Origin: a virus
Taxonomy: Duplodnaviria; Caudoviricetes
Virus record (IMG/VR): IMGVR_UViG_3300021514_000002
Coordinates: 128,001-192,000 of that record
Direction: 5' to 3' (one strand)
Length of the DNA: 64,000 bases
In this document: positions 11,513 to 34,199 of the stretch, piece by piece
How positions within the stretch are numbered: the first letter of the stretch is position 1
Layout: each line of letters opens with the position of its first letter
Made by a program: the position numbers and the translations under genes
Notes under the pieces: generated by a model
Seen by the model: only the letters and a program-made list of their open reading frames with translations
The model's database searches: none
Told to the model about the DNA's origin: nothing

Positions 11513-12022
11513 TTTGCCTTCTGCCTATACGGCAGTGAACAACTTTGAAGCTATCAAGCTTTTAAGTATTAACTTCTAAGCTGCCTATACGGCAGTGAAC
11601 CTAATAATGTAGCAGTAATTGTTTTGTCGTTCCTTCTAAGCTGCCTATACGGCAGTGAACATGACACAACAGCGAATACACTCGTCTATGTTTCTTCTAA
11701 GCTGCCTATACGGCAGTGAACTGATAGCCGCATACCTAGTGGGTTTTTTGAAAGCTTCTAAGCTGCCTATACGGCAGTGAACATACCATTGGATAGTGGA
11801 ACGGAAAGAGGCACCTTCTAAGCTGCCTATACGGCAGTGAACCTTCCCATACTTCCAACACTTTTAGTTTCGCACTTCTAAGCTGCCTATACGGCAGTGA
11901 ACGATAGAACCTATTCCAGTTATTCCAGTTAATCCTTCTAAGCTGCCTATACGGCAGTGAACATTAGTTACCCATAGGTCTTCTGCACTTGACGCTTCTA
12001 AGCTGCCTATACGGCAGTGAAC
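11513..12022 (-). CRISPR. Type I-F CRISPR array: 9 repeats (last degenerate), 8 spacers of 32-33 nt
   Basis: 28-nt repeat GTTCACTGCCGTATAGGCAGCTTAGAAG at 11995, 11935, 11875, 11815, 11755, 11694, 11633, 11573 (left coordinates); degenerate trailer repeat 11513-11540. Confidence 0.99.
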
Positions 12023-12157: not shown

Positions 12158-12704
12158 ACCAAGGTATAGTGGCATTTTTACTTAAACCAAAGCAATCAAA
12201 TTGTCCGACAGTTTGAACTTTTGTTAATTCTCCAAAAGTCAAATATCTGCGATGTTTATGTTTATTAGAATTACTTACTAATTCCATATATGGTTCATCA
12301 AGCCCATGGTTAAACATTTTATTTTTATACAATTTTATATCAGCAGTGGATATTGAGTTTCTTTTAATTAACCGTCGTAATTTAGCTTCAGTCATATTAG
12401 ATTGCTTACGAGAAATTATTCTATAAAGGCCGTTATCTGGTACTTTACGTATAATACCAATTAAACAATATTGCGCCAAATTGCCCAACCATTTAGTATT
12501 TTGGAAGTTTGTTAGTTCGTTTTCATTACCATGAATTCTTAACGTTTTCCCAAGTACTATATTATAATCAGGGAAACTAACGCCAATATTAGATGATTTT
12601 AACGAAAACAATCTCCAATGAAATTTAGTATAAACTTCATTAAGTAATACATTTTGACGAAATTTCTTATTAGGTTGTATTAATATATCGATATAATGTT
12701 TCAT
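12153..12704 (-). CDS. cas6f: CRISPR endoribonuclease Cas6f (Csy4)
   Basis: 183 aa; IGVSFPDY...LRIHG, Arg-rich EAKLRRLIKR helix, C-terminal FDCFGLSKNATIPWF; abuts the I-F array. Confidence 0.95.
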   Translation of the reverse strand: MKHYIDILIQPNKKFRQNVLLNEVYTKFHWRLFSLKSSNIGVSFPDYNIVLGKTLRIHGNENELTNFQNTKWLGNLAQYCLIGIIRKVPDNGLYRIISRKQSNMTEAKLRRLIKRNSISTADIKLYKNKMFNHGLDEPYMELVSNSNKHKHRRYLTFGELTKVQTVGQFDCFGLSKNATIPWF

Positions 12705-13720
12705 TAGTTTCTCCTTGGACGAGTATCAATATTAGAGACATAAGCCAAGCCTTTTTTACCCAAAGGGAAACTTGACACGCCAGCATTTTCAATCATAGTT
12801 TTTATTTCTGTTGCGTCTTCACGATTAATATCTATATAAATTTCAAGTGTTCCACTGGCTTTGGTTAGCATTGAAACTACTTCACCTTCACCTTTTATTC
12901 TTTCTTTTCGGATATACGGATTACCATATATTTTCTTTTTTTCCCCCGTGGTAAAACGATCCATAAAATCTTTTTTTGTAAAAAGACGTTTAGATATACC
13001 AGATATAACGCCTGTTTTGGTAATAGCGGTAGATATATCAAATGATTCGGAAAGTCTATTTAATTGCAAATAAATGGCAGAACAATATACATTTTCAATA
13101 ACAATTTCGCCTTTATTATTAACATAATTAGTGTCATTAAATTGTGTATCTAAATATTGTATGACTTTTTTTGCCTTACCTTGAACTATAATAGATTTAA
13201 TCTTTCTTAATTCATCAAACTTTTCACAAATTACAATCGGATCAAGTTTAATTAATTTGTCTACTTTGGTATCATCTAAAATGAAAGAATATAATTCATC
13301 AGTATCTAATGCTAATACCCCCCATAATTCTTGTGAATAATCTGATTGAAAAATAACGTCATCGGTCTTAATCATCCCTGTAAAAGAATTTTGATCAGTA
13401 CTGCCTGAAATATTTCGAATATAAGTCATTTCATTAGTTAATTCTGGATTATCCATAAATGTAACTAACTTTTCAATGTCTCGGAAATAATAATCACTTG
13501 TGCTACGGGAATGGTATAACTTTCTTTGATCACCAATAAGACGATTAATTACCCCCATCACAGTATTCAGTGTGATTTCCCGACGAATAAAATTCTTCGA
13601 GGTCTTTAAATTGGTCATTGAAGCAATAAATTTACGCCCCTTTTTAGGTAATGCCACATTATTGTCGCCATCCAGAAACGAATTTCTCCACGATGAATCA
13701 TAATTAATTAATATTTTCAT
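12704..13720 (-). CDS. cas5fv: Type I-F2 (I-Fv) Cas5fv
   Basis: 338 aa; [43 protein letters not shown] resemble Shewanella putrefaciens Cas5fv as recalled; position between cas7 and cas6. Confidence 0.9.
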
Positions 13721-13729
13721 ATAAACACC

Positions 13730-14677
13730 CTATTTGGCGTAGAAATAAGATGCAAATTCAGATTCAGGCATCTCCGAGATTTCAGCTTCATTGCGCTTAA
13801 TACGCATCATTTTATTACTATCATTGTAATCAATTAAAATTTCATCAACATACATATATGATTTTGCTTGACGGATAGATAGTTCACTGATCATTTGTAA
13901 AGTGTATTCAATTAACGCTTTTATTGCATCATTATTTAATAAAATACCTACTTCACCCTCTTCAAATATTGTACCTTCACGCACATAGTTCTCATGAAAG
14001 ATAGCCATTGAATTTAATTCAGGATTAAGTGATTTAATATAATTTTGAATAGTTTTCGCAATTGTTTCACCTTCACCCTCTTTGATGGTCATGCTTGCCC
14101 TGCCAAATTTATTATCAAGTGAGATGAATTGTAATTGTTCGATACTAATGGAACCGTAAGAGAGATATTTAGTATCACCAAACGTAGTCTTTGAAAAGAA
14201 CGAAGAGCTATCACGCTCACCAGCTTGTGTCATTTGTTCAAAATTTCCATTGCCTAATTGGTCTACAAAATCTTCCATTAATAACGGGCTGGTTCGTTTA
14301 CGTTGACTAGAGGGTACAACGTAACCACGAATTAATCCTGTCATAGAGGCAAGTACTTCTAATAAGTTATTTTTCGCGGCGTAATGCAAGTCAAATGCTT
14401 GATCACGAAATAAATGATGTCTAACACAGTTTTGACTAATATATAAAGGATTTTCTTTGAAATCAATATCGGTAGCTTCCTTTTTATATTTGTAACCTGT
14501 TTCATCTTTGATCTTTCCTGTTAAATTAGAATAACCACGCAATTTTGGCATTGTATGATTGTTAAAGGTTTTCCCATCATTACCTGTTAAGGTTGTTGGT
14601 CCATTCCAATTAACAACACCGTGTCCTAACGCCGTAATCTTAAAATCAACACTTTTGATGCCTGTTACTTTTTTCAT
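13730..14677 (-). CDS. cas7fv: Type I-F2 (I-Fv) backbone Cas7fv
   Basis: 315 aa; [24 protein letters not shown]..., [20 protein letters not shown] closely resemble S. putrefaciens Cas7fv as recalled. Confidence 0.92.
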
Positions 14678-14681
14678 TTTT

Positions 14682-17267
14682 TCACCCTATTAATATATTT
14701 GAAATTGAACCAATCGGCTGCTTGTCACAAATTGCATAATAAATAGCTGATTGATGTGCTTTTTGTTCGCCACCAATGGCGTTCAAATCTTCTTTTGTGT
14801 AACTTAGATAAATTGGTGTATCTGGATTTCGTGCAGCATTTAATAATATATCTTCATTATACGTTTTTTTCGTTTTTTTGATATTATGATGTTTAGTTAA
14901 CATATATGATAACAGATTATTCTCAGCATTACCATACCCTTTTATTAACCCAACACTTGCTGTTAATCCTATTGTAGTTTGGGTATGATCAGTGTCTTCT
15001 GTATAAGCATACTCATTTGGAAATTCATATTTTTTCGAATTTACTACGCGGCAAATTGCCATTTGTACAAATCTGTTATCACCACGTAAAGAATTATTTT
15101 TAATTTTACTCGTCTGCTTGTTTAATGAAACTTTTTTATGAGGGTAAAATAATGGATCTATTATATTTTGGTTTATAAGTGTTGCACTGTCTTTTAACAT
15201 TAATAATAATTCTTCTTTAATTTCGTTTAAAGATATTTCGTCCTTATAGAATTTTTTATATAACGCATAAAGATAATTAATATCAACAACATTACTGTTA
15301 ACATTGGAACATAAAAAATTATACCATGCTTTAGTGCTTTTTAATAAATTCTGCGTTCTTAAAAACCAACCGGTTTGTCCATTATCTATATTTTCAGGTA
15401 CTACCGTAAGGTATTCATTGATTGTGTTATTTTTACCAAAACGATCTAAACGACCTAACCGCTGTAACCAATTCTCTGCGGTTGTTAATTCTGTTATCAT
15501 GTTATCGCAGCTAATGTTTAATGAGGATTGAATGATAGGTCCACTACGCATTATATCGAATTCACTATTACCACCTTCCTTGAAATTATCCATAATCGTA
15601 TTAAATAATGAAAGTTTATCAGCTTTTTTGAATTTAGAATGAAACAATATACCATTTTCTTGATGCATATTTTTAATAAAACCGAGTTGTGCAGTAATTG
15701 CGGTATTACTAATCACAAACGTATTCTTTTTGAATATTTTTTGTGTTAATAATGAATTATTCACATCATCAATTTTAAAATTTACACGATATTTAGATTT
15801 GTTAAAGCTTTTAATATCAAATATATCACTTGAATCAATTTTTAAGACTTTATTCACAAAATAGTAATTGGGTGTAGCAGATACCAATAATGTATTTGCC
15901 TTATCTCCTTGTAACTTTTTGTTTTCAATTAGTTCTGCAAACAACAAATTAAAGGCTGGCATTGTAATTAATTCATGATATTCATCGAAAATGACATGTG
16001 AATTCATTAAAGTTATTAATGCAGTTATATCAGAATGTGTGGTAATTGTGTTTATCGCGTGATCTATCGTAGTAATAACAATATCCCCTGTGAACATATT
16101 ATGTTCTGCGGTTTCCTGCTCAATGCCATTAGTTTTTGTATTTTTGTACTCACCTGTATAAATTTCTATTCGACTGTTTTTTAAATAATCCAATTGTGAC
16201 AGATCGTGATATAGTCCAAGACACACGTTTACCCGAGGAGCTATCCATATAATTTTCTTAACATTACTGTTGAATGCCCATTCTAGGGCAATTTTAGTTT
16301 TACCACAACCCGCTGGCCCTTCAAGAACTGCAATATCGTTAACATCTTGACATTGTTTTGCCACTACCGCTTGTGCTTTGTTTTGTTGACTATCTGGGTA
16401 TAATATAGTAAAGCCTTCAAGACATTGCGCTATTTCAGTTTGAAGCGTACTATTATTATCCAAATGTTTATTGGTTAAAAAGTTTAAACTTTTATCGTTT
16501 ATACGTGTTGTCAATTCACAAGCTGAAAGTGTTGACACAATTCTATCAGCAGTTATAATAGCAGCCCTGATGATATTTTTATCAGCGTTTTCTTTAATTT
16601 CCCTAGTATAATCATCAATAATATCATTGTTTTCCGAATATTCTTTATAAAGGAGATTTTGTTTTTTTAAAGCGTATACAGCATCCTCAGTTATATCCGT
16701 TACTCGTTTCGGTAATTTGATAACATTATTAGAATAAGTTAAGAGTGAAGAATTTACACTTTCCAATATTTGACTGGCTTCTTTTAGAAATAATTCCATA
16801 TTCATATCAGCATTAAAAGAATTATTGACTTTATTGTAAATTTCAGCTTGATTTTTGTAATTATTCTTTCTTATAGGTTTACTGTGATGCCAGTAAATAC
16901 CATGTGTCGCATAATCAAATTGTTTTGGATTTAATCTTTTATCATTTCGATCATTTAGTAAATTAAATAGAAATAGTGAAATTTCGTTGTGTCTTGGATG
17001 CTTTTCAAAAGAAAATTTGCCCCTGTTGATATGTACCCCATCATTAACATCCACTGCTTTTGAACGAGAGTTTAACCAGTTTTGAAATGCAGGATCTAAT
17101 TTACCGATGTCGTGGAAGCAACCCGCCACCAATGTAGCATATGCTAATTTACTATTATTAGTAAGTTTATTAACAATATCATATCCAATCCACCCAACAG
17201 CAAATAAATGATCGGCAAGTAAATGTTGTTTATCATTAGCATAATATGATATTAAATTATTGGTCAC
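14682..17267 (-). CDS. cas3: Cas3 HD nuclease-helicase, apparently without an N-terminal Cas2 domain
   Basis: HD motifs HLLADH, FHDIGK, WHH, TAD; SF2 motifs [23 protein letters not shown]; GTG start with the first HD-domain His about 15 aa in. Confidence 0.95.
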
Positions 17268-32160: not shown

Positions 32161-33634
32161 TTATCCCCAAAAACCGTCTTCCATTGGTTCCATGTTTTCA
32201 AAGCAACCATCCTGTGCGAAGTCCATTAACTCTTGCTGTTCTAGCAAGTGGTTATTATCTTCGTCAAAATCGTACTGTAAATCAAAATCTTCTGCGTAGT
32301 CGTCTTCCATTGTATTGTGCCTTTTAAGTCCGTTGACAGTGGAATAATTATACATGTTATTTAGGTTATGTCAAGAATTATTTTTAATAAACCTTAGTTG
32401 CAATTACCTTATCTGTGCCAGTATTAACAACAGACACAACTTTTTTAATCATGTCCTTGACATTATCAAAATCCAACATTAACTCAGGTAATGGTTCACG
32501 AACCTGCATATTTGTTAAACAATGTGCAATGCGCGTTATAGCTCCAGTCAATGAATAACTAATCATTTGATCATCGTTCGCTTTAACCATTAATGTAAAC
32601 AAGTTACCAAACGGATCTTTTAATGAAAGTTTTGCAAGTACAGTTGCCATAATGTGTTACCTTGTTTGTTGACGTTAGAGCTATTATTACATAACCCTAT
32701 ATCTTTGTCAATAACTATTTCAGGATTCTTTTCAGCCCTTCAACCACCAGCTGATATTGTTTAGCTAATGTCATGTCAAACAGTCGATCAACTGTTATAA
32801 AATAATCCGCATAATATCCAACTTCTGTTACGCCTAATGGTGCTAGTTCTTTTAAGATACATTCAATATCTTCATCGTTTTGCTCGCTTGTGCGATTTAT
32901 CACACAACCATCAGGCGTAGATATTACGAAACTTCTTATTTCATAACCATCGACTTCGTTCATAACTTTGTTACTGCTACAATTTTAGCATTCTGCGCGC
33001 GTAAATATTTCGCCTTTGCAAGTGCTGGGGTTTTACTTGCTCCATCTGGTATGGTGAAAGTATTTTCAACTTTTAAATATGGCGCGGTTGGTTTACCATC
33101 ACGAATGTCTCGCACAGTATACGCTTTTACCATTACACCATTTTCTTTATTGATTGTTCGATGAGCGGCATACAATGTAGCGGCATATGAATCACCAATA
33201 TTAAAAGTATCTTTTAAAATACTAATTGCATTCTCACGCTTGGTTGCTGTTTGACTATCAAGCACAGTGAATGCGCGTTGCCGTACCGAATTTGGATCTT
33301 TTTTACGTGCCATTTAAATTTCCTCTTGTTCGTCGTCTGCTTTACCATTGATAGTACAAGGACGAAACTTATACAATGGACAATTCTTTGAAGTACAATC
33401 TTCAACTTGTTTACGCCAACTACCACACCCCAATGCTTCGGGGTCATAGATACATTCACAACACATCGCATTGATGGCTGCAGCGCGCCCCTTTTTACTA
33501 CGGAGTTTATTCATTACTTTTTCTTTCTGATCTGTTTTCATATTTGTTACCTGATCTGTTTTAAGAAACTTATGTAAGACCAGTGACACGACATGAATAC
33601 CTAGTCGACTCCAGCTATGCTGGCTTGGTTTCAT
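32161..33634 (-). other. Small early hypothetical CDS (32161-32355 very acidic, 32384-32650, 32715-32963, 32960-33313, 33314-33634)
   Basis: Co-directional ORFs with promoters and RBS. Confidence 0.7.
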
Positions 33635-33720
33635 CCCGTAGCAAGGGCATTCCTAGTTACACTTGCCGCCTGTTTCCAGACTGTTGTTTTTCAACAACTA
33701 CCACTTAATCTTACATAAGC
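33568..33720 (-). ncRNA. Candidate structured RNA (multibranch, about 150 nt)
   Basis: ~18-bp closing stem (33568-33585/33702-33720), two GAAA-capped hairpins, promoter at 33737-33765. Confidence 0.5.
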
Positions 33721-33895
33721 TCCCTACGTTGAGAACATTATTACACAACCGTAGTTCTTTGTCAATAACTTTAAGCCCTTATAAGTGCTCTTATAGTTTA
33801 TTACCCTGCGCGTCAGGTCGCGTCTATAAGATCGGCGTGGCAATTTGACGCCGATGTTTTACTTTTAACATACATTGTATGTTCTTCTTATAAGC

Positions 33896-34069
33896 AGCCC
33901 CTAACAGGATTCGAACCTGTGAGAAGATAATACAATAACGATGTTTTGGGGACATCAAGACAATTACCCAAAATCCTTGTCTACACACTACACTTAGCGC
34001 AATTGTATGCAATGTATTATCTAAGTCGCTTCTTCAAGTGACTCCCTAAGCCGACAGGGGGCTAGGGGC
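33896..34069 (-). ncRNA. tRNA-like RNA with ~98-nt insertion at the variable arm
   Basis: Acceptor GCCCCTA/TAGGGGC, T-arm ACAGG-TTCGAAT-CCTGT, D-loop with GG, imperfect anticodon arm; no encoded CCA. Confidence 0.55.
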
Positions 34070-34199
34070 ATAGATTTATTCTGCCCACCTCACGACACTG
34101 GGTGGCGATGCCGTAACATTCCTACATGATTGCGTTCCTCTTTGTTTGTTGACAGTGGGGATATTATTACATACCCCTAGTTATTTGTCAATAACTATT

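Follow-up and report, generated by a model that had tools for sequence, protein, structure and literature searches.

The window analysed here is a stretch of 64,000 nucleotides (nt) comprising bases 128001–192000 of IMG/VR virus record IMGVR_UViG_3300021514_000002, the 363.5-kb genome of a giant phage (Duplodnaviria; Caudoviricetes; GC 36%) that is classed as complete by CheckV. Its minus strand carries a series of small early-type genes, each with its own promoter, and within this series a structured RNA of ~165 nt is encoded at 33726–33562, between a sigma-70-type promoter (33765–33737) and an open reading frame (ORF) for a Cys-rich protein of 75 amino acids (aa; MCCECIYDP...; 33541–33314). 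The original prediction, made from the sequence of the window, described this locus as a promoter-driven, multibranch RNA of ~150 nt that could not be assigned to a known family and was either a riboswitch-like leader of the Cys-rich gene or a novel non-coding RNA (ncRNA). The analysis reported here places it in a previously uncatalogued RNA gene family of a clade of environmental giant phages, and the evolution of one palindromic loop within the family points to pairing between two copies of the RNA.

The predicted promoter is present on the minus strand as TTGACA-17-AATAAT with a TG extension, (TG)TAATAAT, a near-consensus element with 11 of 12 matches in a consensus scan; the −35 hexamer TTGACA lies at 33765–33760 and the extended −10 element TGTAATAAT ends at 33737. 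The same promoter type recurs throughout the early region around the locus. The 5′ boundary of the RNA lies ~10 nt downstream of the promoter, and transcription is predicted to start 2–4 nt ahead of the first pair of the closing helix, P1. The minimum free energy (MFE) of the window RNA is −67.9 kcal/mol vs −42.9 ± 4.1 kcal/mol in 200 dinucleotide shuffles, none of which folds as well (z = −6.08), whereas the opposite (plus) strand folds to only −41 kcal/mol (z = −2.0). This asymmetry arises because many of the P1 pairs are G-U; the sequence is an RNA, read from the minus strand.

The fold is multibranched, as had been claimed, and its extent is ~165 nt rather than ~150 nt, with P1 leading into a five-way junction from which P2, P3, P4, and P5 branch. 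P1 includes the perfect CUUAUGUAAGA/UCUUACAUAAG pairing on which the original prediction had drawn, but the helix is 26 base pairs (bp) long (21 bp, a bulged A, and 5 bp) instead of ~18 bp; its 5′ strand occupies 33726–33700 (21 nt, the bulged A at 33705, and 5 nt of P1b) and its 3′ strand 33587–33562. The hairpins and stems named in that prediction all recur in the MFE structure: GUUGUU-GAAA-AACAAC as P2 (33698–33683), GUCUG-GAAA-CAGGC as P3 (33681–33668), GGCAAG/CUUGCU as the stem of the P4 hairpin (33667–33640), and CCAGC/GCUGG within P5, a domain of 52 nt in the window (33639–33588). P5 consists, in order, of an outer CGG/UCG stem, a small internal loop, a second stem, the CCAGC-AUA-GCUGG hairpin, and a 3′-side loop that holds the 8-nt palindrome AGUCGACU (33610–33603), which covariation marks as the proposed homodimer pairing site (see below). 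No terminator-like site follows the RNA in a consensus scan of the window, and ARAGORN finds no true tRNA or tmRNA in the window.

Relatives of the RNA were reached via neighboring genes, then by a degenerate P1 motif scan, and then by a covariance model. Close homologs of the 75-aa Cys-rich protein led to contigs L091–L103, which include an RNA copy 94% identical to that of the window (L091), a far more diverged RNA of the same plan with a different closing-helix sequence (L098), and a 3′ fragment of the RNA ahead of a different, 167-aa gene (L100); homologs of the latter gene led to L104 and L105, and L110/L111, L112, and L113 were added by the motif scan of JGI metagenomes. The covariance model was built from only the five sequences designated type 2 (L098, L104, L105, L110, and L113), with the window sequence left out; it nevertheless recovers the window RNA (45.5 bits, E = 4e-10) as its sole match in the 363-kb genome and also recovers L092/L093, and its scores on the forward strand far exceed those on the reverse strand (e.g., 177 vs 27 bits and 59.6 vs 28.2 bits). 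The family thus assembled has nine distinct sequences: the window and, from environmental phage contigs, L091, L092, L098, L104, L105, L110, L112, and L113. Contigs L093, L109, and L111 hold further copies of L092, L105, and L110, respectively, and L100 contributes the 3′ fragment only.

Beyond these contigs the family was sought widely. A BLAST search of the region against 50,697 GenBank phage records gave no match; exact or degenerate motif scans of IMG/VR gave none beyond the window's own record; and a scan of one genome per species for 185,579 prokaryote species gave none. A PrkA/YeaG-like kinase gene led to records of related phages, of which 20 were searched at the DNA level, with chance-level scraps only, and 50 with the family model, with no match. 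The 117-aa downstream protein, used as a query, led to no related loci, and in L005 and L006, which carry distant homologs of the Cys-rich gene, the upstream region is coding sequence and the RNA is not there. At gathering level, the only matches of Rfam 15 (4227 models, including riboswitches, ribozymes, and phage RNAs) in the window are CRISPR repeats, and no model overlaps the window RNA even at E values up to 10 or the RNA in five homologous loci at E values up to 1; a full-text literature search likewise found no description of the family. The earlier view that the RNA belongs to no known family is therefore upheld, and with nine distinct sequences, abundant compensatory changes among them, and a place outside Rfam 15, so is its reading as a novel ncRNA; there is little doubt that the fold and the family are real.

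When folded singly, all nine sequences adopt one plan: P1, a 4- or 5-way junction, and a P5 domain of ~50 nt. Type 2 members have three branches after P1, and type 1 members (the window, L091, L092, and L112) have four, the extra one being P4. MAFFT gave no structural alignment of the two subtypes in the middle of the RNA, and for this reason P1 was counted on a model-based alignment, the inner helices on a type-2 alignment, and the palindrome on an alignment of 14 columns. P1 is paired in 97.9% of cells across all nine sequences, with 13 of its 26 pairs changed on both sides (slid controls, 40–47%); the whole fold of type 2 (n = 5) is paired in 96.1% of cells, with 15 pairs changed on both sides (slid controls, 38–48%). 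For both counts, the observed covariation score was reached by none of 500 shuffles. In type 2, double changes are seen in P1, P2, and each of the two P5 stems, and P3 is invariant. The central part of P1, UUAUGGAA/UUCCAUAA, is invariant across homologs. The position of P2 is held in the homologs by a hairpin capped by GAAA, GAAG, or UUCG, the helix of which covaries within type 2; P3 differs among homologs in length and loop. The P4 stem covaries among type 1 members (GGCAAG/CUUGCU, AUAGA/UUUAU, and AAGGUGU/ACACCUU) around a conserved loop, UGUAACURGGANUGC. The length of P5 is nearly constant: six members have exactly 50 nt, the window and L091 have 52 nt, and L105 has 47 nt.

A perfect 8-nt palindrome occupies the same structural place in all nine homologs, on the 3′ side of the P5 internal loop, 0–2 nt past the inner hairpin and 1–2 nt before the returning strand, and it takes seven different sequences: AGUCGACU in the window and L091, AUCGCGAU in L112, AUGGCCAU in L092, GUGCGCAC in L098 and L104, GCUGCAGC in L113, CUGAUCAG in L105, and GUGUACAC in L110. 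A single occurrence would be unremarkable, as about half of shuffled sequences contain some 8-nt palindrome per 170 nt; the P5 loop is, however, the only site that is palindromic in every member. Its four symmetric pairs are Watson-Crick in 28 of 28 cells, with no G-U; all four have changed on both sides, with nine pair types besides the commonest. The covariation score of the palindrome is 1.36 vs 0.28 ± 0.13 in shuffled alignments (reached in 0/500), and slid registers are only 14–46% paired. This is the palindrome-to-palindrome covariation by which symmetric loop-loop contacts are recognized in RNAs of the GOLLD/ROOL type (PMC12286853). The two central bases of the palindrome are adjacent and the 8-mer cannot fold on itself, so the pairing must join two molecules. 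The self-duplexes are predicted at −10 to −14.5 kcal/mol, and each variant matches itself at 8 of 8 positions but the others at only 0–6 of 8; L091 and L092, the palindromes of which are unlike, come from the same metagenome sample. A symmetric homodimer contact, in which two RNA copies pair through the P5 palindrome, is the most likely reading of this pattern.

In most loci, the RNA has a companion. A tRNA-like RNA lies at 33896–34069 (−) in the window, with a T-loop, GGTTCGAATCC, at 33917–33907 and its own promoter at 34191–34163, and such a T-loop adjoins the RNA on one side or the other in seven of eight distinct loci. The corresponding regions are ~545–705 of L098, ~640–790 of L104, and ~1135–1315 of L105, and the canonical T-loop is GGTTCGAATCC or GGTTTGAATCC. 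ARAGORN does not call the tRNA-like RNA as a tRNA, and with the Rfam tRNA model its T-loop region reaches only 15.3 bits. Where the tRNA-like RNA directly follows the RNA, as observed for L098, L105, and L113, the acceptor stem of the former starts 2–5 nt past P1, and RNase P would therefore make the 3′ end of the RNA. An inspection by eye, which was not systematic, found no convincing base-pairing between the two RNAs.

The gene order around the pair varies among loci. In the window and L091, a promoter and the tRNA-like RNA are followed by a second promoter, the RNA, and the Cys-rich gene; in L098, a promoter is followed by the RNA, the tRNA-like RNA, and the Cys-rich gene; in L104, L105, and L113, by the RNA, the tRNA-like RNA, a new promoter, and the 167-aa gene; in L112, by the RNA and the tRNA-like RNA; in L110/L111, by the tRNA-like RNA and then the RNA, which has no promoter of its own there and is directly followed by the next promoter; and in L092, by the RNA and a 67-aa gene. 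The distance from the promoter to a conserved UUAUG core is 46–54 nt in six of eight distinct loci. In L113 (−), the promoter lies 128 nt ahead of the core instead of ~50 nt, leaving ~80 nt extra between promoter and P1, and the L113 RNA would thus have an extra 5′ leader of ~80 nt. The Cys-rich ORF of the window, which has a weak match to zf-C4pol under the cut-off, is preceded by a Shine-Dalgarno (SD) sequence, AGGU, at 33552–33549, 7 nt ahead of its ATG. A longer frame of 106 aa in the ORF list (33634–33314, −) has its ATG inside the RNA and runs in frame into the Cys-rich gene; this extension is most likely spurious, because the 75-aa start at 33541 has a ribosome-binding site and is the start called in relatives.

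Several further observations concern the companion and its surroundings. Contig P0032 begins inside the tRNA-like RNA. The heptamer GUAACUG is common to the P4 loop of type 1 (GUAACUGGGA; 33655–33649 in the window) and the pseudoknot region of the tRNA-like RNA (UUUUGGGUAACUGUCC; e.g., in L105, L113, and L115), which could be a common protein site or chance. The spacer between the tRNA-like RNA and the next promoter is also conserved (33800–33890, −, in the window; ~1320–1420 in L105; upstream of the RNA in L110), and contains both the motif GACCUGACGCRCAGGGUAAU and a GC-rich hairpin of 8 bp, AUCGGCGU...ACGCCGAU; the spacer could act as a terminator or a processing signal, or it could be a further small RNA. 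In relatives, a second gene-free gap of 490–710 nt lies a few genes downstream of the Cys-rich gene (3659–4368 in L091, 3420–3913 in L094, 3320–3865 in L095, 1986–2478 in L099, and 3089–3581 in L104); in L091, L100, and L104, it holds a T-loop-like motif (GGTTCAAATCC or GGTTCGAGTCC), and those relatives may encode a second tRNA-like RNA.

Taken together, these features suggest how the RNA might be made and what it might do. Transcription would start at the early sigma-70-type promoter a few bases ahead of P1, usually producing one transcript that also carries the tRNA-like RNA; RNase P would then release the RNA by cutting 2–5 nt past P1, where the tRNA-like RNA has its 5′ end, and RNase III might contribute with a cut in the long P1 helix. 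The palindromic P5 loops of two copies would form a symmetric 8-bp helix that joins them, and the palindromes, which differ by phage lineage, would be mutually incompatible. The dimer, probably with the tRNA-like RNA, would most likely serve, early in infection, as a trans-acting RNA particle with a structural or decoy role, and the neighboring gene would not be under its control. That the compact ~165-nt RNA is an obligate homodimer held by the 8-bp loop-loop helix, that its palindromes form a lineage-specific, orthogonal dimerization code, and that it forms a particle with the co-transcribed tRNA-like RNA in host takeover is a fuller reading, which we hold with moderate confidence.

Several points weigh against the dimer and particle. 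The transcript ends, stability, and processing of the RNA are all inferred from sequence. The 14-column palindrome alignment was centered on the palindromes by the analyst, and it draws on only seven distinct palindromes, from related phages. A loop- or DNA-binding protein dimer that co-evolves with the palindrome is a possible alternative. The L092 locus has no tRNA-like RNA within 900 nt, and at three loci (the window, L091, and L092) the RNA is part of the 5′ untranslated region of an mRNA with no intervening terminator, which makes a local role there possible. The family is moreover a narrow accessory element, because it is absent from the 50 related phage records and from the other collections scanned.

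The protein alternative takes its most developed form in a real, trans-acting RNA that works as a monomer, with the palindrome serving as the site of a co-evolving symmetric protein dimer, of phage or host, or having some other role. Dimeric proteins classically use palindromic sites, and the invariant center of P1 hints at protein recognition somewhere on the RNA. Protein sites, however, tend to conserve sequence, whereas here four positions switch among A-U, U-A, G-C, and C-G without a mismatch or G-U, which is a signature of nucleic-acid pairing; moreover, palindrome switching in OLE and GOLLD matches RNA-RNA contacts in cryo-EM (PMC12286853). On this balance, we consider a protein-bound monomer unlikely. 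Somewhat less likely still is that the element is mainly a cis-acting processing or stabilizing module, in which P1 would be an RNase III site or would protect the 5′ end of early transcripts and the excised RNA would be functionless: the 26-bp duplex is of a size suited to RNase III and stands right at the predicted 5′ end, and the RNA occurs in polycistronic early units without its own terminator, but a processing stem needs neither a constant 50-nt P5 nor covarying inner helices nor a covarying palindrome.

A riboswitch or other cis-regulatory leader for the Cys-rich gene would suit the local arrangement in the window and L091, where 20 nt separate the end of the RNA from the start codon of that gene, with no promoter between them. 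Across the family, the RNA is not tied to any single downstream gene or class of genes: what follows it differs from locus to locus and is most often another ncRNA, the tRNA-like RNA, with a new promoter after it, and the leader reading therefore fails. Homologs of the Cys-rich gene with 49–97% identity often lack the RNA upstream. Nor is there an expression platform, in the form of a terminator or of start-site sequestration competing with an aptamer, as the SD sequence of the window lies outside the P1 fold, no terminator was detected in the scan of the window, and no riboswitch family matches. The riboswitch-like leader of the original prediction was accordingly abandoned as improbable; the RNA is an independent, promoter-driven non-coding RNA gene, not a riboswitch, and the Cys-rich gene is its neighbor in the window genome, not its constant partner. 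Most improbable of all is an element that acts as DNA, for example a mobile element of the miniature inverted-repeat kind, an origin, or an inverted repeat bound by protein. Its long terminal inverted repeats and its differing placement relative to the tRNA-like gene between genomes would suit such an element, but the G-U-rich pairing is strand-specific, both in folding energy (−67.9 vs −41 kcal/mol) and in model score (177 vs 27 bits), the element is always co-oriented with transcription and mostly lies just after a promoter, and the 363-kb genome contains one copy only.

Other features of the phage stand apart from the RNA. A CRISPR array at 11573–12022 (−) has eight repeats that match Rfam CRISPR-DR4 at 45.6 bits each and are type I-F-like; ORFs of 338, 315, and 861 aa lie beside it at 12704–17267 and could be cas genes of a phage-encoded CRISPR system. 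Outside the window, the genome carries genes for a PrkA/YeaG-like serine kinase (genome positions 246789–248744) and a GroEL-type chaperonin (genome positions 121097–122722); the kinase homolog is 66% identical to a YeaG-annotated gene of Enterobacter phage LAU1 and 54–61% identical to homologs in several phages of 340–640 kb.

Two known systems were tried as relatives and set aside. A link to Y RNA and Ro60 was rejected, as the 363-kb genome has no match to TROVE or RtcB (positive controls were detected), and a retron msr-msd was rejected, as there is no RVT_1 match anywhere in the genome and the neighboring genes are small and variable. Other systems offer partial likenesses. The pRNAs of phi29-type phages are 120–170 nt long, have ends that form a long helix below a junction, and multimerize by covarying Watson-Crick loop-loop pairs; the window RNA resembles them as a phage RNA of similar size with an end helix below a junction. 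They use two distinct complementary loops, however, and form a ring on the portal of small phages, whereas the window RNA has one palindromic loop, belongs to a 363-kb phage, and lies among early small genes without a link to packaging genes; no phi29 pRNA model of Rfam matches it. The dimerization initiation site (DIS) of HIV-1 is a short self-complementary loop that varies by subtype yet remains palindromic and mediates RNA homodimerization. In that case a 6-nt palindrome stands in a hairpin loop of a genomic RNA; in the window RNA, an 8-nt palindrome belongs to a small ncRNA and stands in an internal loop, on its 3′ side.

A parallel in setting is found in phage T4, the annotation of which places species 1 RNA (rnaC, 139 nt, tRNA-like, with the T-arm GGGUUCGAAUCCC) next to species 2 RNA (rnaD, 119 nt). 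As at the locus described here, a stable RNA of tRNA shape is paired with a neighboring stable RNA that is not a tRNA, both within a single unit of transcription and processing; to our knowledge, neither species has been assigned a function. Membership of rnaC and rnaD in the family was rejected: when the T4 tRNA region was searched with the family model and its filters off, the maximum was 9.7 bits, with 2.9 bits in rnaC and nothing on rnaD, and rnaD, which does not fold significantly (z = −0.8), lacks a long closing helix and a palindrome domain of this kind.

Phages encode several stable structured RNAs beside tRNA genes (T4 species 1 and 2, the T5 RNAs, GOLLD, and ROOL) for which we know of no assigned job, and self-assembly of the largest of them has been shown only recently. 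GOLLD, ROOL, and OLE are large, "ornate" RNAs that form RNA-only homo-oligomers (PMC12286853), and in OLE and GOLLD, loops that change from one palindrome to another (from GGCC to either GAUC or AGCU) are symmetric kissing loops in cryo-EM structures (Kretsch et al., Nature 2025, PMC12286853). GOLLD and ROOL are encoded by phages or prophages, often next to tRNA genes, as the window RNA is encoded beside a tRNA-like RNA, and the switching of loop palindromes in OLE and GOLLD has its counterpart in the 8-nt palindrome that varies among seven sequences in the present family. The differences lie in scale and descent: GOLLD, ROOL, and OLE have lengths of ~500–800 nt or more, 3–5 times that of the window RNA, which does not exceed 500 nt as GOLLD and ROOL do and has no homology to their models (no Rfam family, these among them as far as Rfam 15 contains them, matches the RNA even at E values up to 10). 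The window RNA has one self-complementary site, and a dimer, rather than a cage, is therefore the simplest prediction from its sequence. The family is a very small, well-delimited case with an unusually clear evolutionary signal for RNA-RNA self-association, in which the palindrome changes fully and never breaks, and at 165 nt the RNA would be easy to transcribe, mutate, and solve. Its naturally orthogonal palindromes would be useful parts for RNA nanotechnology; if the homodimer is real, the family would provide a miniature, tractable counterpart of the GOLLD and ROOL assemblies and perhaps a clue to paired stable RNAs like those of T4.

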